DNA of 16,102 nt from a virus (lineage: Duplodnaviria; Heunggongvirae; Uroviricota; Caudoviricetes). This document shows, in pieces, positions 1,462-16,102 of the stretch. The stretch lies in IMG/VR virus record IMGVR_UViG_2778261646_000017, positions 1-16,102 of that record. The stretch is one strand, 5' to 3'. The first letter of the stretch is position 1; each line of letters starts with the position of its first letter. The notes below the pieces were generated by a model, which was not told where the DNA came from, made no database searches, and saw only the letters and a program-made list of their open reading frames with translations. The translations under genes and the position numbers were made by a program.

Positions 1462-1583
1462 ATATGTCCTTTTATCACCACAGCAAGGCAACCCATTGAT
1501 TTAATTAAACAACCCACACTGCAAAAAGTGCTAAAAACAGCAAATTGACTACACCATTAACTACACCGTTCGGTGCACTGTAT

Positions 1584-1610
1584 GAAACAACGTGGAACAA
1601 ATAGACACAA
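1584..1610. promoter_or_regulatory. Partial third copy of the phased GAACAA element (gaAACAAcgtgGAACAAatagacacaag)
   Basis: 17 nt (gaaacaacgtggaacaa) identical to the start of the reverse complement of 14781-14810; lies 123 bp after the phoQ stop. Confidence 0.4.
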
Positions 1611-1900
1611 GAAATATACAGGCGGGTAATCTTTCCAGGGGGAAGCGCACCAATTCATGAGGGGCGTTAATGTCGATATGGGGATCCCCATAACGGGGCT
1701 ACCGGATTTTTTTTCCGGTTAACTGTTAATCAGGCTGGTGGGTTTTACCTGTTCGGTAGGTGTTATGATTATCGTAATACCTTTCCCCCAGTGGGGTAAA
1801 AGCTCCAACCGTAACGATGTTCGTTGTGGTTGCCTTGATGGTCTGCGTGGTCATTATGACCATTCCCAAAAACAACATATTCGTTGTTTTTCTGTGCCCC

Positions 1901-2330
1901 GACCTCCTCAAATTGAGGAGGTCGAAAGTATCAACCAGTTACCGCGCCGACTTCCTCAAATTGAGGTTCCCGAAAATATCAGCGGGTTAACGATCAAACT
2001 GGCGAGTAATTAAACTGCGAAAATTTCGCATGTGAGGGATGTAGTCGGCGCAATTTTGCGCTTTGCTTTAATCTCAGTAAGTTACCGCGCCAACTTCCAC
2101 AGTCTGTGGAAATTGGGAAGAATCAACGGTTTAGGCCTTAATCATCTGCGTAATCATAAGTAATCATAATGTTCATTCAGCCACGCAATTTTGCGTTATC
2201 GGGAATATCAGCAAGTTACCGCGCCGGATTCCGCCAATGGCTGTTTCCGAAAGAATCAACGGGTTAGGCTGGTTTCCCCGATGTTCGCCGCTGGCGAATT
2301 TCGAAAATATCAACCAGTTACCGCCGCAAC
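1901..2330. repeat. Array of seven copies of a degenerate 12-17 bp motif (ATCARC-NR-GTTA, four extended to AGTTACCGCGCC) interleaved with hairpins
   Basis: Motif copies at 1931-1948, 1976-1992, 2074-2091, 2121-2137, 2205-2225, 2254-2269, 2307-2327; perfect 11-bp-arm palindrome gacctcctcaa-a-ttgaggaggtc at 1901-1923 with a degenerate copy at 1949-1970; palindrome ttccacag-t-ctgtggaa at 2094-2110. Confidence 0.6.
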
Positions 2331-2599
2331 CGCTCCGGCTTCTTCCAGTGGTACGTTATTTTTTCTTTCTCCCGATGCAGTTCAACGCGGCGATTGTAGG
2401 CCAGCATTTCAAGAACGCGGATCCGTATGTTGCGCATATCAACATCATTAAGCTGGATACCATCACGGCGCATCACCTCAGCAACAACACGCGCATAATT
2501 TTCGGCTGTCACGCTGTCCGGCTGCGTGGTCTGTTCGTCAGCCTGCTGGTTGATTCCAGAGACGCGGCGGATTAATCGCAGTATTTCGGCTTCTGTCAT
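2318..2599 (-). CDS. Hypothetical protein, 93 aa (orphan gene after TerL; candidate accessory gene)
   Basis: ORF MTEAEILRLIRRVSGINQQADEQ...; GAGG Shine-Dalgarno 9 nt upstream of ATG at 2599; enteric-like codon usage; starts 14 bp after the TerL stop. No family recognised. Confidence 0.55.
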   Translation of the reverse strand: MTEAEILRLIRRVSGINQQADEQTTQPDSVTAENYARVVAEVMRRDGIQLNDVDMRNIRIRVLEMLAYNRRVELHREKEKITYHWKKPERLRR

Positions 2600-2612
2600 G
2601 CTGCTGACCTCA

Positions 2613-4274
2613 TTACACCCCGCTAAATTCTTCCAGTTTCTGGCGGTGGCTGTCGCTTATATCAAAAGCAAAATCCTCATGCTCTGCCTGAAATGTACCA
2701 AACGCCATCAGTGCCGCTACGCTCGGGTCTATCTTGTTCGGTGATTTTTTCTTGTTCGGCTTGATATTGGCGTTCGCGTCACTCTGCATCACGACGTTAC
2801 TCATCGACCAGGACAACACCGGATCGCCACGATGCACAATCACCCTGCGGTTAACAAAAACTTCGAACGATTTCGCCGCCGGACTGAATCTGAGGTAGGT
2901 TTGCGGGAACGGCTCCACCTCAAAGCCTGCCCCCTGTAATTGCGTTCTCAGGTGCGTGGCGTTCCACGTATCGAAGCCCACCCGCCTGATATTAAATTTC
3001 TCGGCGTCCTGCATGATGTCATCTCTGATCCGGTCGTAATCAATGCAGTCGCCAGGCGTTGTGCGTATCCAGCCCGCTTTAGCCCACTGGCGATAGACAG
3101 CGCGATTTTTATTGGCTGGGTTCTGTAGCTGGAACTCCGGCAGATAATGACGGGAAACCAGCATGATATTTTTACCGACCGGAAAGGCATAGCATACGCT
3201 GGAAATATCGCTGGTTGATGATAAGTCCAGCCCCGCGTAACACTCCTGACCGTGTAAATCTTCCTCCGTGAACGTTCCGGTACACTCAGCCCATGCACCA
3301 TTACCCATCCACGGGGTAGTCCCCTGACACCAGATATTAAATCGCTTTGTCATCATCTCCACCCACTGCGACGGAATACCCCGCGCTTTCTGGATGGTTG
3401 AGGCCAGTTTTTCACGATCCACGGAAACATCGATGTTAGGGTTAGCCTTTATCCACATCGCCGGATCATCAACCTCGTTTTCGTCGTCCAGTTCGTAAAT
3501 CAGTACAAAAATTGAATCGTTGACCTCTTCGCCGTCCAGGATCTGGCAGCAATAATCATAGTGCTGCTTACAGGCTGAAACGACGTTACTGCCCGATGTG
3601 GTAATGGCAAATAACAGCCCTTCGGGACGTGCGCCCATCCCCATATCAAGTGCGGAATAAACCCCGTTGTCTGGGTGCAGGTGATATTCATCCACAATGG
3701 CAAGACTCGGGTTTGTCCCCTCAATGGTTGCCGCTTTTGCTGCCAGTGGCTTTAACAGGCTGTTGGTTTTCGGGTGTATCACCTTATGCGCCTGAATATT
3801 CACCCGCCTGCGTAACGGTCGGGATAAAAGGCACATCTGACGCGCATCATCAAAGACGATCCGCGCCTGGTCACGGCTCACCGCTGCGGTGTAGATATCC
3901 TGCTGACCGTTCTCCATAATCAGAAACCAGTTAGCCAGAATCGCGGCGGTCGTGGATTTCGCATTTTTGCGCGGCACTTCGATAAAGGCGCTCGTGTATT
4001 TGCGCCGTCCGGTGGCCTTAACCTTAAAGCCGAGGATGCACGCAAAGGCGAACTGCTGCCACGGCTCCAGCTCAATGGGTCTGCCACGCATCGGTCCTTT
4101 TACGTGCGGGCACACCCTGGAAAAGGCAATAAACCGCTCCACAACCTCACGATCGAACGTGTAAAGGGGGCTTTTAAGGTCCGAAAAGTACCGTTTAACA
4201 GCCTGTTTTAACCGTTTACAGGCCGGAATTTTGCCCGTTTTTACGTCTTCTGCGTACTTATTCCAGGCGGTCAA
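2613..4274 (-). CDS. terL: Terminase large subunit (Terminase_1-type ATPase/nuclease), 553 aa
   Basis: N-terminus YAEDVKTGKIPACKRLKQAVKRYFSDL typical of TerL; Walker A VPRKNAKST; Walker B-like LAIVDEYH; apparent TTG start inside the TerS 3' end with AGAGGA SD (17-nt overlap with TerS). Confidence 0.93.
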   Translation of the reverse strand: MTAWNKYAEDVKTGKIPACKRLKQAVKRYFSDLKSPLYTFDREVVERFIAFSRVCPHVKGPMRGRPIELEPWQQFAFACILGFKVKATGRRKYTSAFIEVPRKNAKSTTAAILANWFLIMENGQQDIYTAAVSRDQARIVFDDARQMCLLSRPLRRRVNIQAHKVIHPKTNSLLKPLAAKAATIEGTNPSLAIVDEYHLHPDNGVYSALDMGMGARPEGLLFAITTSGSNVVSACKQHYDYCCQILDGEEVNDSIFVLIYELDDENEVDDPAMWIKANPNIDVSVDREKLASTIQKARGIPSQWVEMMTKRFNIWCQGTTPWMGNGAWAECTGTFTEEDLHGQECYAGLDLSSTSDISSVCYAFPVGKNIMLVSRHYLPEFQLQNPANKNRAVYRQWAKAGWIRTTPGDCIDYDRIRDDIMQDAEKFNIRRVGFDTWNATHLRTQLQGAGFEVEPFPQTYLRFSPAAKSFEVFVNRRVIVHRGDPVLSWSMSNVVMQSDANANIKPNKKKSPNKIDPSVAALMAFGTFQAEHEDFAFDISDSHRQKLEEFSGV

Positions 4275-4614
4275 GCTCGTCCTCTTCTTCTGTTTCCGGT
4301 GGATTTTTACGGCGGCTTATCGGGTCAAAACCGAGCAAGGAGGCCATTTTTATCATCACTCTTTCAGCGTCGGATTTTGCGCTTAATGCGGGGTTTCTGC
4401 TCTCGCCGCCCTGACTGTTAACAATGCTGAACCCGCGCGCCGCAAGGTCTGCAACGGCTTTCCGGTAAATGGAGTAGTTGACGCAATACAGTTCCAGATT
4501 GCTCCAGTCGGCGGGGGTCAGGTCTCCCCGTTCCGCAAGCTGCCGCGATTTTTCCCGCCACTGCTTCACGGCGATATCATCCAGGTAGGCGGGGGCTTTC
4601 GGTGGTCTTGCCAT
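4258..4614 (-). CDS. terS: Terminase small subunit, P27-family-like, 118 aa
   Basis: MARPPKAPAYLDDIAVKQWREKSRQLAERGDLTPADWSNLELYCVNYSIY...NPALSAKSDAERVMIKMASLLGFDP with acidic C-terminus; directly upstream of and overlapping TerL. Confidence 0.8.
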   Translation of the reverse strand: MARPPKAPAYLDDIAVKQWREKSRQLAERGDLTPADWSNLELYCVNYSIYRKAVADLAARGFSIVNSQGGESRNPALSAKSDAERVMIKMASLLGFDPISRRKNPPETEEEDELDRLE

Positions 4615-4665
4615 GCTTATTTTTCGTCAGATTATTTTTCAAAAAATTCCCGTGCATAAAAATTT

Positions 4666-4724
4666 GGGGAGGCGTTCGGTGCCCGGCGGGGTCGGGTTTG
4701 TCCTGAAAACGCCCCCCACCCCGT
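4666..4724. other. Putative cos (cohesive-end) site: GC-rich segment with partial dyad symmetry in the 288-bp HNH-TerS intergenic gap
   Basis: ggggaggcgttcggtgcccggcggggtcgggtttgtcctgaaaacgccccccacccc; it is the only long non-coding gap in an otherwise overlap-coupled operon; HK97-like cos phages place cos between the HNH gene and terS. Confidence 0.4.
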
Positions 4725-4902
4725 CATACAGCCTCATCAGCGATTGCGGAAACATTCCATAACCTCGCGGTCACGGTCGGTTAATCGCTTCGCTGTGATG
4801 CGTTCTGCGCGTCCTGACGCTTTATCTTTATGCCCTGTTTCCTGTGTCTTCCATGCGTCACGCTGCCTTATAAGTCCACGGATAAGGCGGTTTTGTTCCC
4901 GC

Positions 4903-5343
4903 TCATTCATCAGCGTCATACATCCAGTTATTGCGGTTAGCGGCCCGTTCTTCCTCTTCATGAAATCCACCTGCGGCACGCTTGCTTTTTGTTGCCGGAT
5001 CAAGCCATTTCGTTTTCTGGTTATGACACGCCTGGCACAATGGTTGATGGTTCCATTCGGGCCAGAAGAGAACATCATCACCGCCATTAATCGGGATAAT
5101 GTGATCCACCACCACGGCGGGCGTATATATCCCCTTCTCAAGGCATCGCACGCATAACGGGTTTTTACTCAGATACATGGCGCGGTATTTGTCCCACTGT
5201 CTGGAGTACCCACGCGCGCGGCGGTGTCCTCGTCTGGCATCCTCTGCACGCCATGCCGCCCGCCTGTGCTCCTCACACTTGCCGGACTTCACGCGCCTGT
5301 TACAGCCTGGTTCTGTGCATCGTCTTAATGGTTGCCACGGCAT
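4903..5343 (-). CDS. HNH endonuclease (packaging-associated), 146 aa
   Basis: Cys pairs CTEPGC...C and CVRC...C, HNH core VVDHIIPINGGDD...NHQPLCQACHNQKT; GGGGGTG SD; sits immediately upstream of the cos-like gap and terS. Confidence 0.88.
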   Translation of the reverse strand: MPWQPLRRCTEPGCNRRVKSGKCEEHRRAAWRAEDARRGHRRARGYSRQWDKYRAMYLSKNPLCVRCLEKGIYTPAVVVDHIIPINGGDDVLFWPEWNHQPLCQACHNQKTKWLDPATKSKRAAGGFHEEEERAANRNNWMYDADE

Positions 5344-5639
5344 CAGTACACCCCCACATCACGGTAAGCCGTCCAGAGCGCGCCAATCGTCATGGGTACG
5401 CGCGTTTTTGCGTTATCCGCTACCAGCTGGCGATTCTCGTACAGGTGAGCGATAAACATCATGCAGCCAATCTTTATGGCTGGCGTGAACTCCAGCCCGT
5501 CATCAAAGCGCCTGCCTATATGTATCTGGCACGCCTCAAGCGATGCGGCAATGTATCCGCTGATTAACTGGTCTTCCTCGTCGCCATCGATGCGGCAATG
5601 GAGTTTCACTTCTTCCAGGGTGATAAGTTCTTCTGTCAT
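5343..5639 (-). CDS. gp6-like head-tail connector protein, 98 aa
   Basis: N-terminal LITLEEVKLHCRIDGDEEDQLISGYIAASLEACQ matches the gp6-like connector signature; GAGGG SD; ATGA start-stop overlap with the upstream adaptor gene. Confidence 0.75.
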   Translation of the reverse strand: MTEELITLEEVKLHCRIDGDEEDQLISGYIAASLEACQIHIGRRFDDGLEFTPAIKIGCMMFIAHLYENRQLVADNAKTRVPMTIGALWTAYRDVGVY

Positions 5640-5974
5640 TTTTCCGCGCCCTCACGACAAAGAATTTCAAGGCGTGTCCTGGCGGCATCCGGCAGCGGCT
5701 GCCCGATGATATTCAGTACACGCCCCGCCAGCGGCCCCGTATTGACCTTTATCCGGCTGGTGGCGTTGATGTCCTTCCTGTAGCGTATCCATATCCTTAC
5801 CGTTCCAGTCGCCAGTTCTGCACCCGATGAAATGGCCTCCTTGCTGCTGATCATGTTCACGCTTGCCCAGAGTGTGTGACCGTCCACCCACGTTTCGAGT
5901 ATTTCGCCGGTTATATCCCTGGTCTGTTTCAGGGTCTGAATCGTTACCCTGTCACGCAGTCGCCCTATGTTCAT
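5636..5974 (-). CDS. Head-tail adaptor / head-closure (joining) protein, about 112 aa
   Basis: GRLRDRVTIQ...TGEILETW...LWASV...RIWIRYR pattern of the phage head-tail joining family; start chosen at ATG 5974, which forms an ATGA overlap with the portal stop (the ORF track's longer start at 6016 has no SD). Confidence 0.75.
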   Translation of the reverse strand: MNIGRLRDRVTIQTLKQTRDITGEILETWVDGHTLWASVNMISSKEAISSGAELATGTVRIWIRYRKDINATSRIKVNTGPLAGRVLNIIGQPLPDAARTRLEILCREGAEK

Positions 5975-7182
5975 TCCGGTTTTTCTCCCTCGCTGATTTT
6001 TACTTCCTGTTTCCATGCCTGGCTGAACTCATCACCACCATCACGCGGGGACAGCCCTTCACGTTCGCGGGCTTCGTTCGGGCACATAACGCCGGATTTG
6101 ATGCCGCGTTCATAGGTGGCAAAGCGTTCGCCAGGTGTGGCCCGTAACAGGTCCGCGCTGTCAAACTCCACCTGATACCGGATACCAGGTACAGGTGAGG
6201 CCACCAGCAGGGCGTTTTTTATCTGCTGCTCAAAGTTCGCCAGCCACGGGCGCATCGTCATGGTGAGAAATGCGCGGCTTGCCTCGCTGAAATTGCTGTA
6301 GGTGCTGTTGCTGTATTCCTGCAAAAAAATCGGCGAGACGTTGAACATTCGGGCGATGTCTTCAATGGTGAAGCGACGGGAGGCCAGCCATTCAGCATCC
6401 TGATTACTCATGCCCAGCTGCTGATAGCTCATACCCCCTTCAAGGATGGGCGTTTTTCCGGCGTTTCTGGCCCCTTTGTAGCGTTCCAGTGCGGCTAATG
6501 CCTGTTTGCCCTTCACGCCGTCCAGCCATTCGCCTGACGTGATAACCCCTGCCGCCATCATGCCATCACGCATCACGCTCGCGCCGTGGCGTTGTTGGGC
6601 CAGCCCAAGCCCCAGCGATTCGCGGCAGATGGTTACAGGTGAGCGCCCCATAAAACCGTCATCCGTGGAGTAACGAAGGTGGAGAACCTCCCACGGTAAA
6701 TAGTTGCGGGTGTTTCCGGTGTAGGCGTCAGTGATGCAGTAGCGCCAGTTATGCTCACCTGTCTGCTCCACGTTCACCGACTGCGGCGGGTAAGGATGTA
6801 AAGCCACCGGAAAACCATCACGCCCCCACCGAATCACCGCATAAGCATTACCGTTTAACAGGCAGTGGCGGATCATCATTCGCTTAAACTGGTAGGGGGT
6901 TTGCCACGCGTTCGGGCGCTCGTTGAGGATGTGATCGACCGGATGAGAATCAAGCCACTCGCGGGCCTCCTTCCCCTTCTCATTGCGTACCAGGTACAGG
7001 TAACACGGCATGGTAGCCACCGCCTCAGAGATGACCGTCACGGCGTTCATGACGGCGGGCAGTGATTCCGCTGTCCCCGATGATACGTACTCACCCGCCC
7101 CCGTGTTCGATGTGCCGGCCAGCGCCATAAACTCATCAAGCGTCATGCTGCGCTGCTCTTTTTTTCTTCTGAAAGGCCACAT
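5971..7182 (-). CDS. Portal protein (HK97-family-like), 403 aa
   Basis: 403-aa ORF between protease and adaptor with portal-like features (…FNVSPIFLQEYSNSTYSNFSEASRAFLTMTMRPW…); GGGGGTG SD; start 1 nt after the protease stop. Confidence 0.9.
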   Translation of the reverse strand: MWPFRRKKEQRSMTLDEFMALAGTSNTGAGEYVSSGTAESLPAVMNAVTVISEAVATMPCYLYLVRNEKGKEAREWLDSHPVDHILNERPNAWQTPYQFKRMMIRHCLLNGNAYAVIRWGRDGFPVALHPYPPQSVNVEQTGEHNWRYCITDAYTGNTRNYLPWEVLHLRYSTDDGFMGRSPVTICRESLGLGLAQQRHGASVMRDGMMAAGVITSGEWLDGVKGKQALAALERYKGARNAGKTPILEGGMSYQQLGMSNQDAEWLASRRFTIEDIARMFNVSPIFLQEYSNSTYSNFSEASRAFLTMTMRPWLANFEQQIKNALLVASPVPGIRYQVEFDSADLLRATPGERFATYERGIKSGVMCPNEAREREGLSPRDGGDEFSQAWKQEVKISEGEKPE

Positions 7183-7183
7183 A

Positions 7184-7741
7184 TCACACCCCCGCTAAAT
7201 CCGCCCACCAGCGGCGATTATCCGCACGCGGCATTTTTTCGGGGTGCTGCTCGTACAGGGAGCGGCGGGCCAGCTCCACGCCAGAATCAGGGTAAGCCGG
7301 TACGGATGTAACGGTAATTTCGTACAGTTCCGCCACCAGCACGGTGCGCACGCATGGATCTGTTGTGGTATCCCATACATCCTTACGGGAGCGAAAGCCA
7401 AAGCTCATGCCGGATATATCACCTCGTTTAACCAGTTCGATAACGTCCCGCCCTGTACTGGTATCCGGTGGGGTCAGTTCAAAGCGTAACCCTGTGTCGT
7501 CCTCTTCCAGTTTCAGCGTGCCGGAACGGGTGCGCCCCAGTAACATGCTGTGGTCATGCTCATACAGGCCGCGAACGTCATTACCCGCTGCAAGCCATTC
7601 AGTAAACGCTCCCCGCTGGAATTTTTCGTAAAACTCCCCCCATAGCAGCTCTGAAAGGTTATCCCAGCGAACAACGTAGCCTGTAAGCGTGTTGCTGGCG
7701 CTGGTGGTGATTTCCGATGACCGGATTTCCATACTCTTCAT
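7184..7741 (-). CDS. Prohead maturation protease (HK97-family-like), about 185 aa
   Basis: MKSMEIRSSEITT...GYVVRWDNLSE...DHS..LLGRTRSGTL...GDISGMSFGF motifs; start placed at ATG 7741 (GGTGA SD) because the longer start at 7756 lies directly on the tail of the upstream terminator. Confidence 0.85.
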   Translation of the reverse strand: MKSMEIRSSEITTSASNTLTGYVVRWDNLSELLWGEFYEKFQRGAFTEWLAAGNDVRGLYEHDHSMLLGRTRSGTLKLEEDDTGLRFELTPPDTSTGRDVIELVKRGDISGMSFGFRSRKDVWDTTTDPCVRTVLVAELYEITVTSVPAYPDSGVELARRSLYEQHPEKMPRADNRRWWADLAGV

Positions 7742-7756
7742 AATTTTTTCACCCAT

Positions 7757-7786
7757 AAAACACTAAAGGGGCTTTTAAGCCCCTTC
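7757..7786 (-). terminator. Rho-independent terminator between the capsid and protease genes
   Basis: On the - strand: AAGGGGCT-TAAA-AGCCCCTT stem-loop followed by TTAGTGTTTT, 10 nt after the capsid stop. Confidence 0.6.
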
Positions 7787-7795
7787 TGTATGCTG

Positions 7796-8953
7796 TTAAT
7801 CGTCGTCCTGTGGCAGTTCCAGAATCTTGATCGCGTTCGAATCCACCACGCCACCGCCTAAATATTTCTGCGTGAAAATTTTGATGAAGCCCGGCTCTGT
7901 GAGGTTGTCCGGTCTGGTGCGAACACCTGTTTCGTGATCAACAATGTAGTAACCGCGTTTGAAGTCACCCAGGGCAATAACGTTATCAGGCATAAACTCC
8001 AGATATTCGACCGGAAGGCCCAGCAACGTATCAGGATCACCCGCCTGTAAACGGTCGCGCCAGATGTAATCACCGTTCGCGTTCTTCACCTTCTGAAGTT
8101 TTGCGGCCGTCGTGGAGTTAACCACCCAGACCGCGTTTTTGCGATATTTTTTATGTAATGCAAATTTCAGGTCGATCAGCGGGTCCGCAGATGTCCACGC
8201 CAGAGATTCGGAAGGTTTAATTACCTGTAACGTACCAAAATCACGCTCTTTGTCGTTCTTCTCTGCACGGGGTACGGATAAAAAGCCTTTTGCTTTTTTG
8301 TCACCGTCGCCCACAACCAGATCGCTTTCTTCGGTTTCCGTGAAGGTGTCGCCAATCTCACCCGTCAGCCATGAAAGGATGTCCACATCGGAAAAATCCA
8401 CGATTTCCTGTGTGGTGCGCGGGTACGCATAGACCGGATACAGCTTAATGCTCACCTCGTTAATCTGCGGGGTGCTGGTCTGTTCGCGTGCCTTACCCTC
8501 TTCACCGTGGTTAACGGTCGCACCGCCAGCGGAAACAAGCTGCTTAAACTCGTTGCTGCTGATTTTCTTCACGGTACAGATGCGGCGCATGGTGGATTCA
8601 TCCGCCAGCATTCGCATGATTTCGGTGTTCAGCTCGGGGATAACGGTATAACCACCATCAGCGGGAACGCCTGTACTTAATGCGCGGGTTTCACCTGTCA
8701 GGATGTAGTTTCGTAGTTCTGCGGGGTCAGTGGTCTGACTGCTTTTACCTGGCTTGCTGCGCTCTTCGTCTGCAATGGCTTCAAGGCGGGAAATGTCTTT
8801 ATCGAGGGATTCAGCTTTAGCGCGTAATTCGTCAAATTTTGCGCCCTCAGCATCGTTAAGACTGCGGTTTTCTTTTTCCGCGTTCTCCAGCATGTCGCGC
8901 ATCTGATTTTTAATGGCGGTTTTCTGCTGGCGTAATTCGATTATTCTCGGCAT
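7796..8953 (-). CDS. Major capsid protein, HK97-fold with N-terminal coiled-coil scaffold (delta) domain, 385 aa
   Basis: N-terminal 60 aa heptad-rich (LRQQKTAIKNQMRDMLENAEKENRSLNDAEGAKFDELRAKAESLDKDISRLEA); C-terminal body with capsid-like features (…GYYIVDHETGV…); followed by a terminator. Confidence 0.93.
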   Translation of the reverse strand: MPRIIELRQQKTAIKNQMRDMLENAEKENRSLNDAEGAKFDELRAKAESLDKDISRLEAIADEERSKPGKSSQTTDPAELRNYILTGETRALSTGVPADGGYTVIPELNTEIMRMLADESTMRRICTVKKISSNEFKQLVSAGGATVNHGEEGKAREQTSTPQINEVSIKLYPVYAYPRTTQEIVDFSDVDILSWLTGEIGDTFTETEESDLVVGDGDKKAKGFLSVPRAEKNDKERDFGTLQVIKPSESLAWTSADPLIDLKFALHKKYRKNAVWVVNSTTAAKLQKVKNANGDYIWRDRLQAGDPDTLLGLPVEYLEFMPDNVIALGDFKRGYYIVDHETGVRTRPDNLTEPGFIKIFTQKYLGGGVVDSNAIKILELPQDDD

Positions 8954-8960
8954 AAAAAAA

Positions 8961-8990: not shown

Positions 8991-9167
8991 GCGGCAAAAA
9001 CTCAACCGTTTTTCATAAGGAAATCAGCAATCGCACCGATCGTTTTCCCGCCTGGTAATGAATATTGGCGAGAACATTAACAGGCGGAAAAGTGGCCCCA
9101 GCGTCCTGGCACCACGGGCGAGAATAATCATGATTCAGTTCGGGTAAAATATGCCGATCCGGTCAGC

Positions 9168-9193
9168 GAACAACGTGGAACAACCACGAACAA
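9168..9193. promoter_or_regulatory. Phased hexamer element GAACAA-cgtg-GAACAA-ccac-GAACAA, about 215 bp upstream of the capsid gene
   Basis: Three perfect GAACAA hexamers at 10-bp spacing; 9169-9193 is identical to the reverse complement of 14781-14805. Confidence 0.5.
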
Positions 9194-9210
9194 ATAATTT
9201 ACAAAACATG

Positions 9211-9235
9211 ACAAAAAGCCGGATTGCTCCGGCTG
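9211..9235 (-). terminator. Rho-independent terminator after the PerC-like gene (end of the early operon)
   Basis: - strand: AGCCGGA-GCAA-TCCGGCT followed by TTTTTGT, 6 nt after the stop. Confidence 0.6.
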
Positions 9236-9240
9236 TGTGA

Positions 9241-9513
9241 TTATCTGTCCTGGTAATTTCGCCATATTTCATCACCAGCACCATCCATACCCATTTCGGC
9301 ATAAGTGCGATCGACCGCCTTTTTCAGGTCTCCGTAATTATCCGGCGGCTCCGGTGGCCTCTGTGCCTTCCTGGAACATTCCAGCCGTCGCATCGTGATG
9401 TGATGCCGTTCCTTGTCTGTCTCCACCAGTTGCATGACTTCACCCCATCGCGCCGACGCTCTCCGGTAAAAGCCTTTCGCCTCCAGTTCTTCCGCTATGC
9501 GGTCATGTACCAT
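9241..9513 (-). CDS. PerC-like small transcriptional activator (putative), 90 aa
   Basis: MVHDRIAEELEAKGFYRRASARWGEVM... resembles my recollection of the PerC-family N-terminal signature (LE..G.WRRAA.RW); strong GAGGGGGG SD; family assignment not verified. Confidence 0.55.
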   Translation of the reverse strand: MVHDRIAEELEAKGFYRRASARWGEVMQLVETDKERHHITMRRLECSRKAQRPPEPPDNYGDLKKAVDRTYAEMGMDGAGDEIWRNYQDR

Positions 9514-9522
9514 CGCCCCCCC

Positions 9523-9933
9523 TCAGAACGGAATATCATCACCGTAAGGGTCATCGCCTCCCGCTGGTGGCTGATTACCCTGTGTGCCTGTGGTCTTGCG
9601 CCGGCTCCCACCAGGTCGCGCCGTTCTGGCACTGATTACGCTGTCTGCAATAACCTGCCAGCCCTGCCGCGTTTCGCCGTTCTGGCCTGTCCACTGGCTT
9701 ACCTGCATGTTACCCGCCACGCTCACCAGCTCGCCTTTGTGGTGTTTTGCCAGTGCGTCGGCCTGTCTGCCAAACGCCAGGACGGATAACCACATCGTCG
9801 CCTGTCCGTCATCTGCCTGATTGCACGGCAGGGGGACCGCCATGCTTGCCATAGCCATTTGTGTGCCCTTGCTGGTGGTCTTTAACTGCGGGTCAGCCAC
9901 CAGCCGCCCGTAAGCGGCTATCTGTGCTGTCAT
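9523..9933 (-). CDS. ssb: Single-stranded DNA-binding protein, divergent, with canonical acidic DDIPF C-terminal tail, 136 aa
   Basis: OB-fold-like core (YGRLVADPQLK...WLSVLAFGRQAD...KGELVSVAGNMQVSQW), Gly/Pro-rich linker and C-terminal DDPYGDDIPF; ATGA overlap with the upstream gene. Confidence 0.8.
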   Translation of the reverse strand: MTAQIAAYGRLVADPQLKTTSKGTQMAMASMAVPLPCNQADDGQATMWLSVLAFGRQADALAKHHKGELVSVAGNMQVSQWTGQNGETRQGWQVIADSVISARTARPGGSRRKTTGTQGNQPPAGGDDPYGDDIPF

Positions 9934-10187
9934 GATTCCACCTCTCCGGTTTTAACGTTGATGGTTGTTACCTGTTCCGCTTCGGCAATCTCCCGTTCCG
10001 TCAGCGTGGCAAAGTTTGCCGCCGCCGTGGTCATGAATGCGCTTATCAGGTCGGGATGTGCTTTCGCGTATCCTTCCCCCGTGTTGCGGTCGATGATTTT
10101 TATCGCCACTCTCAGCCAGTGCTCTGTAAGGTCAATGGCGCGGTTATGCTGCTTCTTCTGATTATTAAGTTTTCCTGATGTGCGCAT
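9930..10187 (-). CDS. Hypothetical protein, 85 aa
   Basis: ORF MRTSGKLNNQKKQHNRAIDLTEHW...; GAGGGGG SD; translationally coupled to ssb. No family recognised. Confidence 0.55.
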   Translation of the reverse strand: MRTSGKLNNQKKQHNRAIDLTEHWLRVAIKIIDRNTGEGYAKAHPDLISAFMTTAAANFATLTEREIAEAEQVTTINVKTGEVES

Positions 10188-10229
10188 TTTTATTTTTACC
10201 CCCTCGTTTAAAAAGTTTTGAGTTGTGCC

Positions 10230-10465
10230 TCCCCTTGTCTACCTTATCTACCTTACTGGCTCTCATGCCAGTAATGGCGCGGCTTTCAGCGGGGTAGAGT
10301 GCTTTTATCCACTATCTACCCCGTATCTACCTCCCTGTCTGATTCAGGTAAAATCAGGTAGAGAGGGTAGATAGTAGGTAGACAGTGAAAAAAGGCTGTC
10401 TACCTAAGTTAATATACTGAATTAAATGTATTTTTCTTTACTCAGGTAGACAGGGTAGACAGCCA
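10230..10465. repeat. Iteron-type replication origin: at least 11 copies of GGTAGA / TCTACC in both orientations flanking an AT-rich core
   Basis: tgtctacc, tatctacc (x3), ggtagag, aggtagagagggtagatagtaggtagacag, gtctacct, then AT-rich taagttaatatactgaattaaatgtatttttctttac, then aggtagacagggtagacag; immediately 3' of the primase gene. Confidence 0.7.
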
Positions 10466-10475
10466 TTGCAAAAAA

Positions 10476-12224
10476 TTATAAAAACGCGTCGCAATCGTCT
10501 GTTGTTATTGCGTTAGTCTGCGTTACTCCCTTAACTTTCCGCGTAATATATTCATGTCCGTAAACTTTCGCGGCTGGCTTCATAGCCTTGCCAAAGTCAT
10601 TTACGTTTAGCGGTTTGCTCCTGCCTGCGTATGCCATAAACGCCAGATAGACGCGGTAAAGGCTGTTTCTGGTCGTGTACTTCACTGAATCGCCACCGCC
10701 ACCCATCATCAGGCCGCGCGCTTCCTCCAGAAAATTCAGGAACTGGCAAAACTCAATAACCGGATCCGTCTGTTGCTTTATTGCCAGTGCTTCATCACCG
10801 TCACGCTGTTCCAGTAGTAAAGCCCGTGCCTTCTCAGGGTCGGTAAAGTTCGCCAGCAAGCGGCGGATAATGACAGGGATTTCAGCCGCGATCTTTTCCG
10901 GTAGCTCCCTGTCTTTTTCTGCCTCGCTTACGATATTGTCGAAGCGGAAAATAACCCGACGACGTGACACGCCTCCGGCCCGTTCGGTGAATATCATCGG
11001 GTTGTTATTGGTCGCCAGCACCACCGCCCTGATTACCGTAGTGAAACGCTTTTCATATTTCGGGTTGATTTCCACGGGGTCGCCGCCCGTGATTTTCTTG
11101 ATGCCCGTGCCTTCGCCTGTATATTTCGGCTGGTCTGCCAGGACGATAAGACGACTCCCGACAACCTGCGCACGCCCACCAGCATCATCAAGCGATGTCA
11201 TTTCCGCGCTTACCGTGTTTTGTTTCCCCGCTAAAAGGCTGGCGATGTGGGTGAATGTACTTTTGCCGCTCCCGCCGTCTCCGGTGGCCTCAATAAACAT
11301 CTGCCAGTCGTACCGGTTCGCCATAATCATGTACAGCGCGGCACATATACGCATCATCTTGCGCTGGTCTTTTCCGGCTGCGTGATCAAGCCATTTATGA
11401 AAGTTTGGCGCGTTATCGCGGATGTTCTCCCCAGGTGCTGGTGGCGTGTACTCAATGCCGTTGTGCGTGGTGATCCAGTTCTCCGGCGTGTGCGGGGAAA
11501 ATTCCCCCGTTTTCAGGTCAAGCGCACCATTGGCGAACGGCAACAAATCGCCGGACGGCTCGCCCATTGGTTCGGCAATAACTTTTAACGCTTCCACGGC
11601 GTTATTGATTACGCGCTTGCTGAAAGTGGCCCTGTGCTCTGAATAGATCGCCACCATTTCGCGGCTAAGTTCCATTGTGCTGACCGGACACCATACCCCG
11701 CCGCGCCATACGTGAACGATTTCACTTTCCGGATGCACACAAACGCCATCAAATCGACCAGCAAGCATCTGTGCGCGCTCACTGTCTGCCATTTGTGCCA
11801 GTTGCGTATTTTTCTGCTCCGGCATGGTAAGCCCTGCGGCAATATTTTCACGCTCAGCATTCAGATAGCGCCGCCAGTTTTCACACTTCTGGACGTGCAT
11901 TCCTTCGGGGTAAAAATTTGCGTCCTGAATATCTGCCGCCGCCAGCTTCTGACCAATCTTTTTGGTCTCCACCAAATCCAGTTCTCCGGCCTGGTACAGC
12001 CTTACGCGCTTTTTCCCATCCGGAACAATTTTCAGCGCATCAAGTTCGGCAAGCTGATTTGGCCCAAGCCACACAGGCGGCACATTATCGCCGGATGCGG
12101 GGCCGTCCTGCTCCTGCCACTGTTTTGCATGTGACCACGCATCACTACCCGCGAAAATAATTACCTCTGTGTCTTTGTGTTTTATTCCGCGTGGCTGTTT
12201 TTTTACGTTCGGTGCCAGTTTCAT
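10476..12224 (-). CDS. Replication protein: primase / SF3-type helicase (P4 alpha-like, PICI Pri-Rep-like), 582 aa
   Basis: Walker A GDGGSGKST, Walker B-like RLIVLAD, N-terminal primase-like region; ATGA-coupled to the upstream small gene; iterons directly downstream. Confidence 0.88.
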   Translation of the reverse strand: MKLAPNVKKQPRGIKHKDTEVIIFAGSDAWSHAKQWQEQDGPASGDNVPPVWLGPNQLAELDALKIVPDGKKRVRLYQAGELDLVETKKIGQKLAAADIQDANFYPEGMHVQKCENWRRYLNAERENIAAGLTMPEQKNTQLAQMADSERAQMLAGRFDGVCVHPESEIVHVWRGGVWCPVSTMELSREMVAIYSEHRATFSKRVINNAVEALKVIAEPMGEPSGDLLPFANGALDLKTGEFSPHTPENWITTHNGIEYTPPAPGENIRDNAPNFHKWLDHAAGKDQRKMMRICAALYMIMANRYDWQMFIEATGDGGSGKSTFTHIASLLAGKQNTVSAEMTSLDDAGGRAQVVGSRLIVLADQPKYTGEGTGIKKITGGDPVEINPKYEKRFTTVIRAVVLATNNNPMIFTERAGGVSRRRVIFRFDNIVSEAEKDRELPEKIAAEIPVIIRRLLANFTDPEKARALLLEQRDGDEALAIKQQTDPVIEFCQFLNFLEEARGLMMGGGGDSVKYTTRNSLYRVYLAFMAYAGRSKPLNVNDFGKAMKPAAKVYGHEYITRKVKGVTQTNAITTDDCDAFL

Positions 12225-12520
12225 TTTTTACCCCTGAATACGTTAAGCATCTTTTTTATTTCCTGAATATTGGCGCGTGCTTTCTCCCTGCTGGTTGGTT
12301 TACTGCGGGGCGCTGCCTGTACCAGAGAAAAATCACGCCGAAACTGATAAACAGGCATCACGCAATCATATTCGTAGCCTTCACGACGGTAGGTGATGCG
12401 CCGTTCTGCCACGCCTTTAATCGTTACCATGCCGCCATATTTATCGCGGTAAATATCGCCGTTCATAAATTCAGGACGAGCGGGGCCGCTGGCAGTAACG
12501 CCAGAATTTTTATTTTTCAT
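12221..12520 (-). CDS. Hypothetical protein, 99 aa
   Basis: ORF MKNKNSGVTASGPARPEFMNGDIYRDKYGGMVTIKGVAERRITYRREGYEYDCVMPVYQF...; basic C-terminus; no family assigned with confidence. Confidence 0.55.
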   Translation of the reverse strand: MKNKNSGVTASGPARPEFMNGDIYRDKYGGMVTIKGVAERRITYRREGYEYDCVMPVYQFRRDFSLVQAAPRSKPTSREKARANIQEIKKMLNVFRGKK

Positions 12521-12525
12521 GTTTT

Positions 12526-12753
12526 TTATTCTCCGGTGTGCTGCGCTTTATTATTCTCGTGAATTGCCATCACTGTATTTAATTCATTAATAACAGGCGT
12601 TAATAGCGTACGCACGGCAGAAAACATCATTGAATCAGATTCATCGCCACTTTCCGGCACATCAATTAACTTAAGTAGTAATGCGTCCATTTCCTTTGCG
12701 CGGATTAATGCGTTTTCAGAATGAACAAGAACATCAAAGGGTATTTTATGCAT
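12526..12753 (-). CDS. Hypothetical protein, 75 aa (start at the internal ATG with AGGGGGGAG SD)
   Basis: MHKIPFDVLVHSENALIRAKEMDALLLKLIDVPESGDESD...; the longer start offered by the ORF track (12855) has no SD and overlaps the upstream gene. Confidence 0.5.
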   Translation of the reverse strand: MHKIPFDVLVHSENALIRAKEMDALLLKLIDVPESGDESDSMMFSAVRTLLTPVINELNTVMAIHENNKAQHTGE

Positions 12754-12916
12754 GACTCCCCCCCTGGCGAATACGGGCGACAAAAATAAGATGTGCGTGC
12801 GGCAGCTGTGCACGTGCTTCGCGCTCAGTGGCAGCGGTAACGGTGAATATTGCAATACTGTCTGTCAGGCACTGCATAAAGCGCCAGACAAAATAAGGGC
12901 GTGCGAATACAGCCAT
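12746..12916 (-). CDS. Small protein, 56 aa, paralog of the gene at 13203-13406 (possibly the Icd-like cell-division-inhibitor family; unverified)
   Basis: MAVFARPYFVWRFMQCLTDSIAIFTVTAATEREARAQLPHAHLIFVARIRQGGSHA aligns with the C-terminal 50 aa of the upstream paralog (WRF...EARxQ.P......F.ARIRQG.SHA). The reading frame stays open upstream to 13210, so the N-terminus is uncertain. Confidence 0.5.
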   Translation of the reverse strand: MAVFARPYFVWRFMQCLTDSIAIFTVTAATEREARAQLPHAHLIFVARIRQGGSHA

Positions 12917-13202
12917 GTGAAAGGCTCCCAGATGAATTTTAAGGAGTCTCGCTACTACGCTGCTAAACATGGTGGCGAGACGTAACAGGGTTAGCAGACT
13001 GGTCATCTGGAAACCAGCGAGCACAAAGGCTCCCCCGTTACGCCCCGCCATAATGCGGGTATGGGTAGGTTTACGGACACAAAAAAACCGCTTATCGGAT
13101 GTGGGCGGCTGTCCGCCAGATGTATTCAGGCTGCTAAACCCGGTCGCCATGTGGGCGACGGGGGAAGCATACAGCCCCGTGATAATTTTTTGCAAGCGGT
13201 TT

Positions 13203-13406
13203 TTACGCATGATGTGACCCCTGACGAATACGGGCGGCGAATACCATCACGCAGCCAGCCGGGGATTGCTGGCGTGCCTCCTGTTCGCTGGTGGCCTCAA
13301 TGGTAATCACGCGCGGTTGTGCCGTGCTCAGGGCGATAAAACGCCAGATGTATTTATTCAGGTTGTGCGAGTCCCGCCCTTGCGGGTGTGTGGTATGATT
13401 TCTCAT
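13203..13406 (-). CDS. Small protein, 67 aa, paralog of the gene at 12746-12916 (possibly Icd-like; unverified)
   Basis: MRNHTTHPQGRDSHNLNKYIWRFIALSTAQPRVITIEATSEQEARQQSPAGCVMVFAARIRQGSHHA; GAGG SD 6 nt upstream of ATG at 13406; it is the C-terminal part of a 352-aa track ORF whose remainder I reject. Confidence 0.55.
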   Translation of the reverse strand: MRNHTTHPQGRDSHNLNKYIWRFIALSTAQPRVITIEATSEQEARQQSPAGCVMVFAARIRQGSHHA

Positions 13407-13501
13407 AGCTACCTCGATACTTTCGCTATCGTTGGTGGTTAGAGGCTGCGAAAGGACGGCAATCCTTTTCAGCCTCGTTTGCATTGAGTGATAGTTACTC
13501 A

Positions 13502-13582
13502 ACTGGATTCCAGTATAATCATCAAGTGGAATCCACTTCAAGCATTTTGTTTTGGTCTTTTTCGTGTATACTGGATTCCAGT
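13502..13582. promoter_or_regulatory. Three palindromic operators with core TGGAWTCCA, plus -10-like hexamers, in the divergent control region
   Basis: ACTGGA-T-TCCAGT at 13502-13514, AAGTGGA-A-TCCACTT at 13524-13538, ACTGGA-T-TCCAGT at 13570-13582; TATAAT at 13514-13519. Confidence 0.6.
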
Positions 13583-13602
13583 AATCACAAAGGAAACCGG
13601 AA

Positions 13603-13782
13603 ATGGAAAGAGACCATATCAATAACAAATCACAAAAATTACAGGCTCGCGCCCCGCATGAAGTTGTTGAGGCAATGGAGCAAGTCAAAGAAACAGGCGA
13701 GAGCACTGCGCAATTTATCGTTACAGCCATGCGCGGCGAGATCAAACGCCGCCAGCGTCGCAAAGCCAAAGAATCAGAATAA
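13603..13782 (+). CDS. Small ribbon-helix-helix-like DNA-binding protein (putative regulator), 59 aa; not in the ORF track because it is under 60 aa
   Basis: MERDHINNKSQKLQARAPHEVVEAMEQVKETGESTAQFIVTAMRGEIKRRQRRKAKESE; AGGAAA SD 8 nt upstream; predicted strand-helix-helix pattern; operators directly upstream. Confidence 0.5.
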   Translation: MERDHINNKSQKLQARAPHEVVEAMEQVKETGESTAQFIVTAMRGEIKRRQRRKAKESE

Positions 13783-13839
13783 TCACTATCAGCGCCGTGG
13801 CGTGAGGTACTCCGGCGCATTGCTTTACAGGTCAGTACT

Positions 13840-14049
13840 ATGAGCAAAAAACACCGATCAGCAGATGAGATTTTTGCAGAACAACGAAGATTGCTTTTGC
13901 AAAGTATCATTTCACGCCAGCAAGAGAAGGCGCGAGCTAAACAAATGCCACCAAATACAGAACCAGCGCCTACAAGATTTGCGCTTGATGACTTTCTCGA
14001 TAAACACCCCAGGGTAATGAAAGCAAACAAAAACCGCCCACCAGGCTGA
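13840..14049 (+). CDS. Hypothetical protein, 69 aa
   Basis: MSKKHRSADEIFAEQRRLLLQSIISRQQEKARAKQ...; weak AGGT SD; followed by a + strand terminator. No family recognised. Confidence 0.4.
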   Translation: MSKKHRSADEIFAEQRRLLLQSIISRQQEKARAKQMPPNTEPAPTRFALDDFLDKHPRVMKANKNRPPG

Positions 14050-14140
14050 TCACATTGCCCACCAGCCTGATAGCGGCTATCATCCCCGTGCTTATGTTTG
14101 AGATCACACACACAAACGGCGCAGCGGGTTATCTGTTCAG

Positions 14141-14173
14141 AAAGGCGGCTCCATTTCAGGGCCGCTTTTTTTA
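14141..14173 (+). terminator. Rho-independent terminator for the two small + strand genes
   Basis: AAAGGCGGC-(11-nt loop)-GCCGC followed by TTTTTTT on the + strand. Confidence 0.55.
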
Positions 14174-14318
14174 TTCCTGAAAAACCCCAATTTTGTTGTT
14201 TTTCAGTTTCACCAGGGCGAACGAATCCCCGCCCACGTTCTGGCGTATATTCAATCTTCATGGTTATAGCTCTGTGTTCAGATGATTGATGTGTGGCGGC
14301 TGCGTGCCGCCAGCGTGA

Positions 14319-14507
14319 TTAATGAACTGCCTTGCAGCTATCCTTCCAGGCCAGAACCTCGGATAAAGACCAGCCAACGGAACGACCGCCAAGTTTACGA
14401 CGTGATGGGAATTGTCCGGCCTTTTCCAGGCGGTAGCGACACGTACGGCTAAGGCCGGTTAGTTTTTCGCATTCTTTTTCACGTATAAACCGATCAGTGC
14501 TTAACAC
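14319..14507 (-). CDS. alpA: AlpA-family transcriptional regulator / excisionase-like HTH protein (62 aa from GTG; track ORF extends to a TTG at 14588)
   Basis: DRFIREKECEKLTGLSRTCRYRLEKAGQFPSRRKLGGRSVGWSLSEVLAWK matches the AlpA HTH signature (TGLSRST.YR....G.FP...KLG.R.V.W); GTG at 14507 has a strong AAAGGGGGG SD 5 nt upstream. Confidence 0.8.
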   Translation of the reverse strand: MLSTDRFIREKECEKLTGLSRTCRYRLEKAGQFPSRRKLGGRSVGWSLSEVLAWKDSCKAVH

Positions 14508-14780
14508 TATTGCCCCCCTTTCGTTTCTTAAAGAGTCATCAGGTGTCTTATTGTGTCGTATTGTTCCCGCTAGAGTGATGAATGGCAAATATTGAGGATG
14601 TATGATTTACAGAAAATGAAACAGTAAGAATAAAATCTTTTAAATTCATGTTAATACAAAGGCATAAAATATTGTTTCATGCCTTTTTTCTCACGCGTTA
14701 AAGCGTTATTCGCTAATGTATAAAAAAACAGTCACACAAATAAAATCAGTCACTTATAAACCTGTGTGCTTTTTCGCCTC

Positions 14781-14826
14781 TTGTTCGTGGTTGTTCCACG
14801 TTGTTTCACATTGTTCTCCGTTGTAT
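14781..14826. promoter_or_regulatory. Phased hexamer element: five TTGTTY hexamers at exact 10-bp spacing, between int and alpA
   Basis: + strand TTGTTC-gtgg-TTGTTC-cacg-TTGTTT-caca-TTGTTC-tccg-TTGTAT; the first 25 nt are the exact reverse complement of 9169-9193. Confidence 0.55.
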
Positions 14827-14872
14827 CTGTGTGCTTATCCAGTATGCGCATACTGAAAAAACACGAAAAAAA

Positions 14873-16102
14873 TTATTTTCTTCTGGCTGCTGGTAGTGCG
14901 GTTACGTTTTCATGTGTTCCCGCCAGTATCCCTAACCGCTCCATCCACATATCCAGCGCATTGCGTTTAGCATCCAGATAACGGGAATGATTATAAACTC
15001 GCTGCATTCCTGGCATCTGGTGGCCTGTAAGCTGCTCCACGACGTGAGGATCCACGCCTAAATCGCTCAGCATCGTTGTAAAGGTGCGCCGGATGTCATG
15101 TAGTGACCAGTGAGGGTGATTTAGCCTCCTGTGCGCTAATCTGCCGTACTGCGACACGCTTGTTTCCTGTTTCACTTCCCCCAGCAATAAGCCCGTGTGC
15201 CTGTTCTGCTCCACCAGCTGCGTGACGAACGGCAGTATTGCTTCCGGTATGGGCCGGAATATTGCCACCTTCGTTTTGCTGTGTTCTTTCGGCACGGTCC
15301 AGAGCATTTCGGTAAAATCCCACTCGCTGATCTCCGATAACCTCAGTTCTACCGTCCGGCATCCGAACACAATCAGGAGGCGGATTAACGCGATGTAGTA
15401 GGGGGAGAATATTTTTTTGTCCAGTGCCTGCAATAATTCGCCCAGTTCTTTGGTGCTTAAGACACGCTCGCTTATATCCAGTTTTTTCCCAACGTCCGCC
15501 ACACTCATATCATCAAGAACGTTGCTGATTGCATAGCGCCGCCTCCGGCAGAACTTAAGCGCCTGTTTGCACGTCTGTAGCAAGAATCCGGCAGTAACAG
15601 GCGTTCGCTTTGCCACCTGGTCAAAACAGGCCAGCCAGTGCCGTAGCTCGCATTTATCCAGCGGCATAGCACCAATGTGCTGTATTACGTGATTATTAAG
15701 GCGCTTTTTCAGGGCGGCATAATCCACGCGGTTTTCCTTTGCGTACGACTCAAGCCAGTAGGTGAGCGCATCGCCAACCGTTACCGGCTTTAACGCTTCC
15801 TGTACGGTGTAATTAAGCTCATGACGTGGATTTTTCCCCTCTGCCAGCCATGCGCGACACTGGGCGGCTTTTTCCCTGGCTGATTTCAGGCTCAGATCAG
15901 GATAATTTCCCAGCTTAATGCGTTCCGGTGGTGCCCCCCTTCCCGTTCCGGCCCTGTAAGTGAAATACCAGGTTAAAAGGCCACTGGTTGAATGCCTGAC
16001 GCTCAGGTTTCCACCGTCATTAAGAAAGGCTGTTTTTTGGGCGGGTGTGCCGTTGATTTTCCTCAGCTGTGTATCGCTCAGTTTGTTAAGTGCTCTGCTC
16101 AT
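14873..16102 (-). CDS. int: Tyrosine recombinase / integrase, P4-type (409 aa; start codon at the window edge, could extend further)
   Basis: N-terminal arm-binding-like domain (LSDTQLRKI...GLLTWYFTYRAG), catalytic region with HDIRRTF...LGHQ-like...RVYNHSRY (R-H-R-Y residues). Confidence 0.92.
   Translation of the reverse strand: MSRALNKLSDTQLRKINGTPAQKTAFLNDGGNLSVRHSTSGLLTWYFTYRAGTGRGAPPERIKLGNYPDLSLKSAREKAAQCRAWLAEGKNPRHELNYTVQEALKPVTVGDALTYWLESYAKENRVDYAALKKRLNNHVIQHIGAMPLDKCELRHWLACFDQVAKRTPVTAGFLLQTCKQALKFCRRRRYAISNVLDDMSVADVGKKLDISERVLSTKELGELLQALDKKIFSPYYIALIRLLIVFGCRTVELRLSEISEWDFTEMLWTVPKEHSKTKVAIFRPIPEAILPFVTQLVEQNRHTGLLLGEVKQETSVSQYGRLAHRRLNHPHWSLHDIRRTFTTMLSDLGVDPHVVEQLTGHQMPGMQRVYNHSRYLDAKRNALDMWMERLGILAGTHENVTALPAARRK

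Follow-up and report, generated by a model that had tools for sequence, protein, structure and literature searches.

The capsid-forming type of phage-inducible chromosomal island (cf-PICI) was defined on EcCIEDL933, an island of 15.4 kb in Escherichia coli O157:H7 EDL933 that excises, replicates, packages and transfers; its induction requires alpA (helpers HK106 and HK446), and its transfer needs each of its own head and packaging genes and, of the helper, only the tail genes (10.1101/2022.09.08.507074). The paper on cf-PICI structure that cites PDB entry 9GYI gives the EcCIEDL933 capsid as T=4 and 47.5 nm, with a 15.5-kb genome. O-island 51 (OI-51, also CP-933C; Sp7 in strain Sakai) lies between ycfD (roxA) and phoQ, and CP073-3 of strain CFT073 has the identical location (PMC3378721). 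Here, we describe an element found at this site in a 16,102-nucleotide stretch of DNA (the window; positions 1 to 16,102 of IMG/VR virus record IMGVR_UViG_2778261646_000017), which is 100% identical to a chromosomal stretch of E. coli N32, a strain isolated from cerebrospinal fluid. With high confidence, we read the element (1460-16283) from its sequence as a complete, probably functional cf-PICI of the EcCIEDL933 lineage, integrated at the phoQ/roxA attB site by a P4-type integrase of its own, because it is near-identical to that experimentally characterized prototype.

Methods

Gene families were assigned with Pfam, PHROGs, NCBIfam and PADLOC and from the RefSeq annotation of the 100%-identical N32 record, and RNA families with Rfam. 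Pfam matches of the core and accessory genes listed below were above curated cut-offs, except that of the integrase central domain (Phage_int_M), which was below. Genome counts were taken over 5426 complete E. coli genomes. Site and gene order were read directly from the Sakai, EDL933 and CFT073 genomes and the empty site from K-12; the right and left surroundings were checked in 8 kb on either side of the N32 match. Scanned for promoters and terminators, the element gave matches no commoner than chance, which did not resolve operons. The results are set against a preliminary description of the window, made from its sequence and open reading frames (ORFs).

Insertion site and extent

A 10-bp direct repeat, AAATATGTCC, bounds the island. 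The empty site of K-12 reads AAATATGCCC, followed by the same right flank as at the attR of N32. The sites and their surroundings are as follows:

1-1461, plus strand: phoQ, host gene at the left flank
1460-1469: attL core AAATATGTCC, whose overlap with phoQ is the final two bases of the stop codon
16274-16283: attR core AAATATGTCC, the same 10 bp as the attL core, 172 bp past the window end
attB (K-12): GATGAATAAATATGCCC-ATACTTCACG
attL: GATGAATAAATATGTCC-TTTTATCACC
attR: TTGATAAAATATGTCC-ATACTTCACG
1544-1567, plus strand: tandem ATT(G/A)ACTACACC repeats, with a matching tandem pair in the same orientation beside attR (~16121-16148)

Core to core, the island measures 14,814 bp, in keeping with the size of a cf-PICI (about 10-15 kb), and it reaches 181 bp beyond the window end, to the attR core. 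From about 1460 onwards, the rest of the window is a single block on the minus strand, nearly all of it co-oriented. The comparison with the K-12 phoQ locus that the preliminary description had recommended thus supplied both the direct repeat and the exact length; of the extent proposed there (1462-16102), the left end near 1460 held and the right end moved to 16283. In N32, roxA (ycfD) begins 249 bp past the int start codon and is followed by pepT and potABCD, so the island is complete at 14,814 bp. Tail or lysis genes were not found in the 8 kb on either side, and the outcome named beforehand as fatal to a satellite (tail, lysis or repressor genes just outside the window) did not materialize: host genes phoQ and roxA stand on either side. 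The tandem ATTAACTACACC-type repeats near both island ends are plausible candidates for integrase arm-type sites.

The phoQ/roxA junction is uninterrupted in 4822/5426 genomes, with about 11% occupied. Sakai, EDL933 and CFT073 each hold an island between roxA and phoQ; EcCIEDL933 is OI-51/CP-933C/Sp7, and EcCICFT073 is CP073-3. The phoQ 3' flank, which the preliminary description did not recognize as a documented satellite site, is therefore one that both EcCIEDL933 and EcCICFT073 occupy (PMC3378721; genomes inspected).

Core genes and the head and packaging module

The cfPICI model of SatelliteFinder comprises 11 core genes and forbids tail and holin genes (PMC10085698). All 11 are present and intact in the element:

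14873-16102, minus strand: P4-type tyrosine integrase (Arm-DNA-bind_3 and Phage_integrase; 98.8% identical to Sp7 int, 96.8% to EcCICFT073 int)
14319-14507, minus strand: AlpA regulator/excisionase (Phage_AlpA, E 5e-17; protein accession shared with EDL933, WP_000953272.1)
10476-12224, minus strand: D5-type primase-helicase (pri-rep) of the EcCICFT073 type (Pfam D5_N, DUF5906 and Pox_D5)
7796-8953, minus strand: HK97-fold major capsid protein with N-terminal delta domain (Pfam; 99.2% identical to the prototype)
7184-7756, minus strand: S78 HK97-family prohead serine protease (Pfam; 99.5% identical to Sp7)
5971-7182, minus strand: portal (Pfam; 99.3% identical to Sp7)
5636-5974, minus strand: head-closure/head-tail adaptor (Phage_HCP; 93.8% identical to ECs1593)
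5343-5639, minus strand: gp6-like head-tail connector (Phage_connect_1; 99.0% identical to ECs1594)
4903-5343, minus strand: HNH endonuclease (Pfam; 98.6% identical to ECs1595)
4258-4614, minus strand: TerS, P27 family (Pfam; 100% identical to ECs1597)
2613-4274, minus strand: TerL (Pfam TerL_ATPase and TerL_nuclease; 97.5% identical to ECs1598)

The gene classes named in the preliminary description were all recovered where it had placed them, by Pfam and in the RefSeq annotation of N32. An integrase is accompanied by an AlpA-type regulator, and the primase-replicase by an adjoining origin of nine iterons; capsid, protease and portal align with those of the prototype over their full lengths at 99% identity, and the capsid and terminase genes are not the disrupted remnants whose discovery would have told against a satellite. 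The order hnh-terS-terL behind the morphogenetic genes is the one expected of Proteobacterial cf-PICIs. HNH endonucleases are packaging accessories of HK97-type terminases. Pfam, PHROGs, NCBIfam and PADLOC assign none of the ORFs to a tail, baseplate, holin, endolysin/lysin or cI/Cro family, and the tail, lysis and cI/Cro genes that a temperate tailed prophage would carry contiguous with its head genes are not found in the 14.8 kb. The earlier claim that such genes are lacking is upheld for proteins; it overlooked a C4/CI-like RNA cassette of the repressor type (see below).

Over window positions 1300-9239 (7.9 kb) the DNA is 97.7% identical to EcCIEDL933/Sp7, and over 14040-16500 it is 98.3% identical. 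The head and packaging proteins all align full length at 93.8-100% identity, the integrase is 98.8%, alpA 98.4% and the 93-aa product of the last gene (ECs1599) 96% identical, the attB site between roxA and phoQ is the same, and the gene order of the Sakai and EDL933 islands is that of the window. The Pfam domain of the capsid covers residues 100-379, leaving an N-terminal delta/scaffold region of about 100 residues. Compared with chain B of PDB 9GYI (the EcCIEDL933 capsid), 382/385 residues are identical, and the three that differ correspond exactly to those of Sakai; this match links EcCIEDL933 with OI-51/Sp7 and places the window element with both of them. For the adaptor, too, a structure has been solved (PDB 2KZ4, E 6e-68). 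Near-identity to EcCIEDL933 bears out the earlier proposal of a tail-less, capsid-forming PICI that would need only the tails of a helper.

The head and packaging module is present to 80% or more in 407/5426 genomes (7.5%), in about 360 of them at 95% identity or more, and at least 80% of the whole window lies in one place in 121/5426 genomes. Deposited phage genomes gave no close match to the head module, the best reaching 77% identity over terS/terL. That best match, LR881103.1, is a 16.5-kb "induced prophage" record under the name "Escherichia phage vB_KppS-Ant"; from its size, it probably represents a packaged cf-PICI that was submitted as a phage. After 9GYI, the next solved relative of the capsid is that of the Rhodobacter capsulatus gene transfer agent (GTA; 6TB9/6TBA, E about 1e-46).

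Three further features lie within or beside the module:

4737-4919, minus strand: 60-aa hypothetical protein, phrog_3173, inside the packaging module (100% identical to Sp7)
4615-4736: gap between the 60-aa gene/hnh and terS (gene order only)
2318-2599, minus strand: 93-aa conserved hypothetical protein, phrog_1561, the last island gene, common to EcCIEDL933 and EcCICFT073

Gene order and the comparison with HK97-type genomes make the gap at 4615-4736 the likely position of the cos site. The 93-aa protein, previously called an orphan, is 96% identical to ECs1599 (Sp7) and 91% to the last gene product of EcCICFT073; it has no relative in PDB. Its identification as Rpp, the PICI protein by which the TerS of a helper is redirected, was considered and rejected: RppA is the 144-aa product of c1503, and the counterpart of the 93-aa protein is the gene that follows c1503.

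Alternative explanations

Flockhart et al. (2012) described OI-51/CP-933C as a decayed, immobile cryptic prophage, a P4-like remnant merely keeping its head genes, and RefSeq marks a pseudogene after alpA in the present element too. Such decay is hard to square with 11/11 core genes of full length, a head module at least 95% identical in about 360 genomes, two intact att cores and a 97.7%-identical prototype that excises, replicates, packages and transfers, and we consider it very improbable. Less probable again is a classical PICI of the EcCICFT073 type, or a P4-like satellite, that remodels or uses the capsid and terminase of its helper. The genes for int, alpA, primase, SSB, PerC and the last product are indeed common with EcCICFT073 at the same att site, and in its early region, which holds a CI/C4-type RNA, the element is similar to P4. 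However, the portal, adaptor, connector and TerL encoded here are forbidden in the classical PICI model (PMC10085698), the late genes of EcCICFT073 (144-aa RppA, head decoration and a lambda-type capsid homolog) are missing, with no window protein aligning there, no ORF matches, in Pfam or PHROGs, Psu, Sid or Delta, whose operon governs capsid size and transactivation in P4-like satellites, users of the capsid of a P2-type helper, and the element has an HK97-type head module of its own. Hardly credible at all, in our estimate, is a domesticated, GTA-like module that the host keeps to produce heads and that no longer transmits itself: integrase, att sites, origin and terminase are all retained, and the module occurs in only 7.5% of E. 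coli genomes while 89% of phoQ/roxA sites are without the element, which is the pattern of a mobile element and not of a fixed host function. The Rhodobacter capsid as nearest solved relative after 9GYI, and the release by cf-PICIs of DNA-filled capsids without tails (cf-PICI structure paper), are what speaks for it.

Some observations weigh against the reading of the element as a functional cf-PICI of the EcCIEDL933 lineage. The experiments were all made on EcCIEDL933; the window variant has a different replication module and is missing the 74-aa ECs1589, and a pseudogene is annotated downstream of alpA. The adaptor is the head protein furthest from the prototype, with 7/112 residues different. 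Tail specificity is set by the adaptor and connector, as published on cf-PICIs, and the tails that the element can use might therefore differ.

On the cf-PICI reading, we infer the following life cycle from near-identity to the tested prototype. A helper phage would turn on alpA, whose product would bring about excision and the expression of the operon downstream. Replication of the circle from the iteron origin would fall to the D5-type primase-helicase and SSB, and the element's own capsid, protease and portal would build small T=4 HK97-fold heads. HNH, TerS and TerL would package solely island DNA, from its own cos site, and adaptor and connector would dock a siphovirus tail borrowed from a phage. 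Gene content, intactness, boundaries, origin repeats and identity to the prototype are direct observations on the sequence; inducibility, capsid size, cos position and tail source are given here as predictions.

Replication and regulatory genes

Between the head module and the early genes lie the following features:

9217-9234, minus strand: terminator-like hairpin after perC (consensus match only)
9241-9513, minus strand: PerC-family regulator, ortholog of PchE (Pfam E 3e-43; 88% identical to Sakai PchE)
9523-9933, minus strand: SSB (Pfam)
9930-10187, minus strand: 85-aa hypothetical protein, phrog_1231 (99% identical to EcCICFT073)
10237-10460: replication origin, nine iterons (RTCTACC, both orientations) surrounding an AT-rich core
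12221-12520, minus strand: DUF4222 protein of 99 aa, ortholog of RgdR (ECs1581; 84% identical to RgdR)

Of the 10 matches to RTCTACC in the window (1.8 expected window-wide), 9 fall at 10237-10460, directly after the primase stop codon; the iteron origin reported beside the primase is real. The same gene had been called a primase/SF3-helicase, and here Pfam finds the D5-type helicase part and no primase domain in residues 1-150. RgdR is a regulator of type III secretion in O157:H7, and the engineered change R20N reduced its activation of type III secretion (PMC3378721). The ortholog in the element has NGD rather than RGD (residues 20-22).

Early genes and the C4 RNA cassette

The region between the RgdR ortholog and alpA holds small genes and RNA elements:

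12526-12753, minus strand: 75-aa hypothetical protein, its start overlapping the stop of the second Icd-like gene (ATGCATAA)
12746-12919, minus strand: second Icd-like gene, read from an internal AUG at 12919
12968-13055, minus strand: C4/CI-type antisense immunity RNA (Rfam C4, 72.7 bits; gathering score 45)
13081-13172, minus strand: upstream C4 target block (a1b1/seqA-like: UUAGCAG, CAUCUGG), then a hairpin and U7 tract
13203-13406, minus strand: first Icd-like gene (98% identical to EcCICFT073)
13603-13782, plus strand: YlcI/YnfO-family small protein (68% identical to EcCICFT073)
13840-14049, plus strand: 69-aa hypothetical protein, no family match
14039-14261, minus strand: N-terminal part of a variable gene downstream of alpA (resembles ECs1576; RefSeq pseudogene)

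The tandem paralogs of the preliminary description are the two Icd-like genes, and the small gene that it took for an RHH protein exists and matches the YlcI/YnfO family instead. The small-gene complement, supposed to be specific to this element, is mostly shared with the prototypes: the identities of the small genes to those of EcCIEDL933 and EcCICFT073 mark the set as largely common, with the second Icd-like gene and the C4 RNA as the exception. For the remaining small ORFs, the matches, where there are any, are restricted to Icd-like and YlcI/YnfO models and to PHROGs without a known function. Defense genes among them were considered and rejected, the sole PADLOC match (PtuB, E 0.009, 13.8 bits) being taken as noise. 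A minus-strand frame of 352 codons (13203-14261) stays open from immediately behind alpA through the first Icd-like gene to its end, opposite two genes annotated on the plus strand; its N-terminal ~230 residues align at 46.5% to Sakai ECs1576, its middle is oddly rich in Cys, Ser and Leu, and RefSeq divides it into a pseudogene and a 67-aa gene.

Besides the C4 match, Rfam gave a c4-a1b1 match at 13123-13172 (45.5 bits, just under the gathering score of 46.7) and an isrK-like match at 13081-13159 (36.8 bits) that ends in a hairpin and U7 tract. Two segments of the C4 RNA, CCAGAUG(A) and CUGCUAA, can pair without mismatch (7-8 nt) with CAUCUGG and UUAGCAG. These targets occur upstream at 13122-13116 and 13137-13131 and downstream at 12935-12928 and 12966-12960, where they lie directly against the ribosome-binding site (GGGAG) of the second Icd-like gene. 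An RNA repressor is thus probably present, though no protein repressor is. From this arrangement, the cassette would probably keep the Icd-like gene silent while the island is integrated, and the downstream early genes as well if their expression depends on translation of that gene. The RefSeq ORF of the second Icd-like gene (154 aa) runs to 13210, across the RNA elements, like P4 eta; it may be over-extended over the C4 RNA, or it may be genuine, as with P4 CI inside the eta frame.

With P1/P7 immI (c4-icd-ant) and P4 CI-seqA-seqC the element shares paired targets up- and downstream of the RNA, the downstream one at the ribosome-binding site of an Icd-like gene, and, as the CI RNA lies inside the longer reading frame of P4 eta, so does its C4. 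In P1 immI, ant follows, whereas the element has no Ant homolog, and its next genes are the 75-aa gene of unknown function, RgdR and the primase. C4 and isrK profiles match several Gram-negative PICIs and were read as P4-like immunity RNAs in "Bro zone" genes (Mageeney et al., PMC10111431); because such RNAs were reported there for Gram-negative PICIs, the C4 RNA of the element is not new in kind. A search of the matching regions of Sp7 and EcCICFT073 for C4/isrK-type RNAs gave nothing, even with E values up to 5 admitted. Part of the 660-bp C4 stretch occurs in 279 of the complete genomes, and at least 80% of it in 17.

Repeat array at the left end

The non-coding stretch from attL to the last gene spans 848 bases and contains a further feature:

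1896-2322: hairpin-repeat array, at least 5 non-coding units of ~48 nt each

Each unit consists of a hairpin, varying in sequence with its complementarity kept, and then a conserved tail, GAAAATATCAACCAGTTACC. The region folds more strongly than shuffled controls (z = -3.2), no Rfam family matches it, and pieces of the array recur in varying combinations in 1278/5426 E. coli genomes.

The window is covered at 97-100% in N32, AR_0013 and CE10 and at 89% in IAI39. We advance only tentatively, and as rather unlikely, that this lineage may have added a functional C4/CI-type switch to a cf-PICI and, separately, that the array could be a cis-acting or small-RNA element of PICIs not described before. 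If the switch works, RNA pairing would control the Icd-like gene and the replication genes downstream in addition to helper-triggered AlpA, and the induction threshold, the spontaneous release of tail-less capsids or the helper range could differ from those of the prototype.

Comparison with known elements

With phage HK97 the element shares a delta-domain capsid, S78 protease, portal, gp6-like connector and HNH-TerS-TerL cos packaging; HK97 heads are T=7 and those of EcCIEDL933 T=4, and the element is without tail or lysis genes. The proteins of cf-PICIs have low sequence identity to phage proteins (10.1101/2022.09.08.507074).

From EcCIEDL933 the element differs in the central 4.8 kb, and at 14.8 kb it compares with about 15.5 kb for that island. 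The EcCIEDL933 primase is of a 710-aa DUF927 type and that of the element of the 582-aa EcCICFT073 type, only the N-terminal 162 residues of which align with the Sp7 primase, at 68%. SSB, PerC and RgdR are only 82-88% identical, and in place of ECs1576-1580 stand the YlcI, Icd-like and C4-RNA genes. On the head-module side, the element and Sp7 part at a recombination breakpoint at 9213-9239, just after perC, at the terminator-like hairpin.

EcCICFT073, the prototype of the classical Gram-negative PICIs, has the same attB site, and window positions 9213-12551 (PerC, SSB, 85-aa protein, origin, primase and DUF4222) are 89% identical to it; by gene, int is 96.8%, the primase 90%, the 85-aa protein 99%, the first Icd-like gene 98% and the last gene 91% identical, and the YlcI/YnfO gene lies on the opposite strand in both. 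The late region of EcCICFT073 is short (capsid homolog, decoration protein and RppA), and that island uses the capsid and terminase of a helper, whereas the element has a full head and terminase module.

By sequence comparison, then, the element is a mosaic in which a replication module of the EcCICFT073 type lies between ends and a head module of the EcCIEDL933 type, and of the small genes only the second Icd-like one, together with the C4 RNA cassette, lacks a counterpart in either prototype. The identification as a cf-PICI is right but not new, as the family, the insertion site, the dissected prototype and the capsid structure are all published; the features specific to this variant (swapped replication module, C4 RNA cassette and NGD RgdR) are modest and of kinds already described, and the flow of regulator and primase genes between PICIs and cf-PICIs has itself been reported (PMC10085698). 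The main value lies in correct annotation: RefSeq names the genes piecemeal as phage proteins and the older literature speaks of a degraded cryptic prophage, whereas the island is an intact cf-PICI, a kind known to cross strains and species on borrowed tails. Close relatives are present in the O7:K1 strains CE10 and IAI39, and among the island's genes are orthologs of PchE and RgdR, two regulators originally reported from O157:H7. The mosaic illustrates clearly how classical PICIs and cf-PICIs with a common att site exchange modules.

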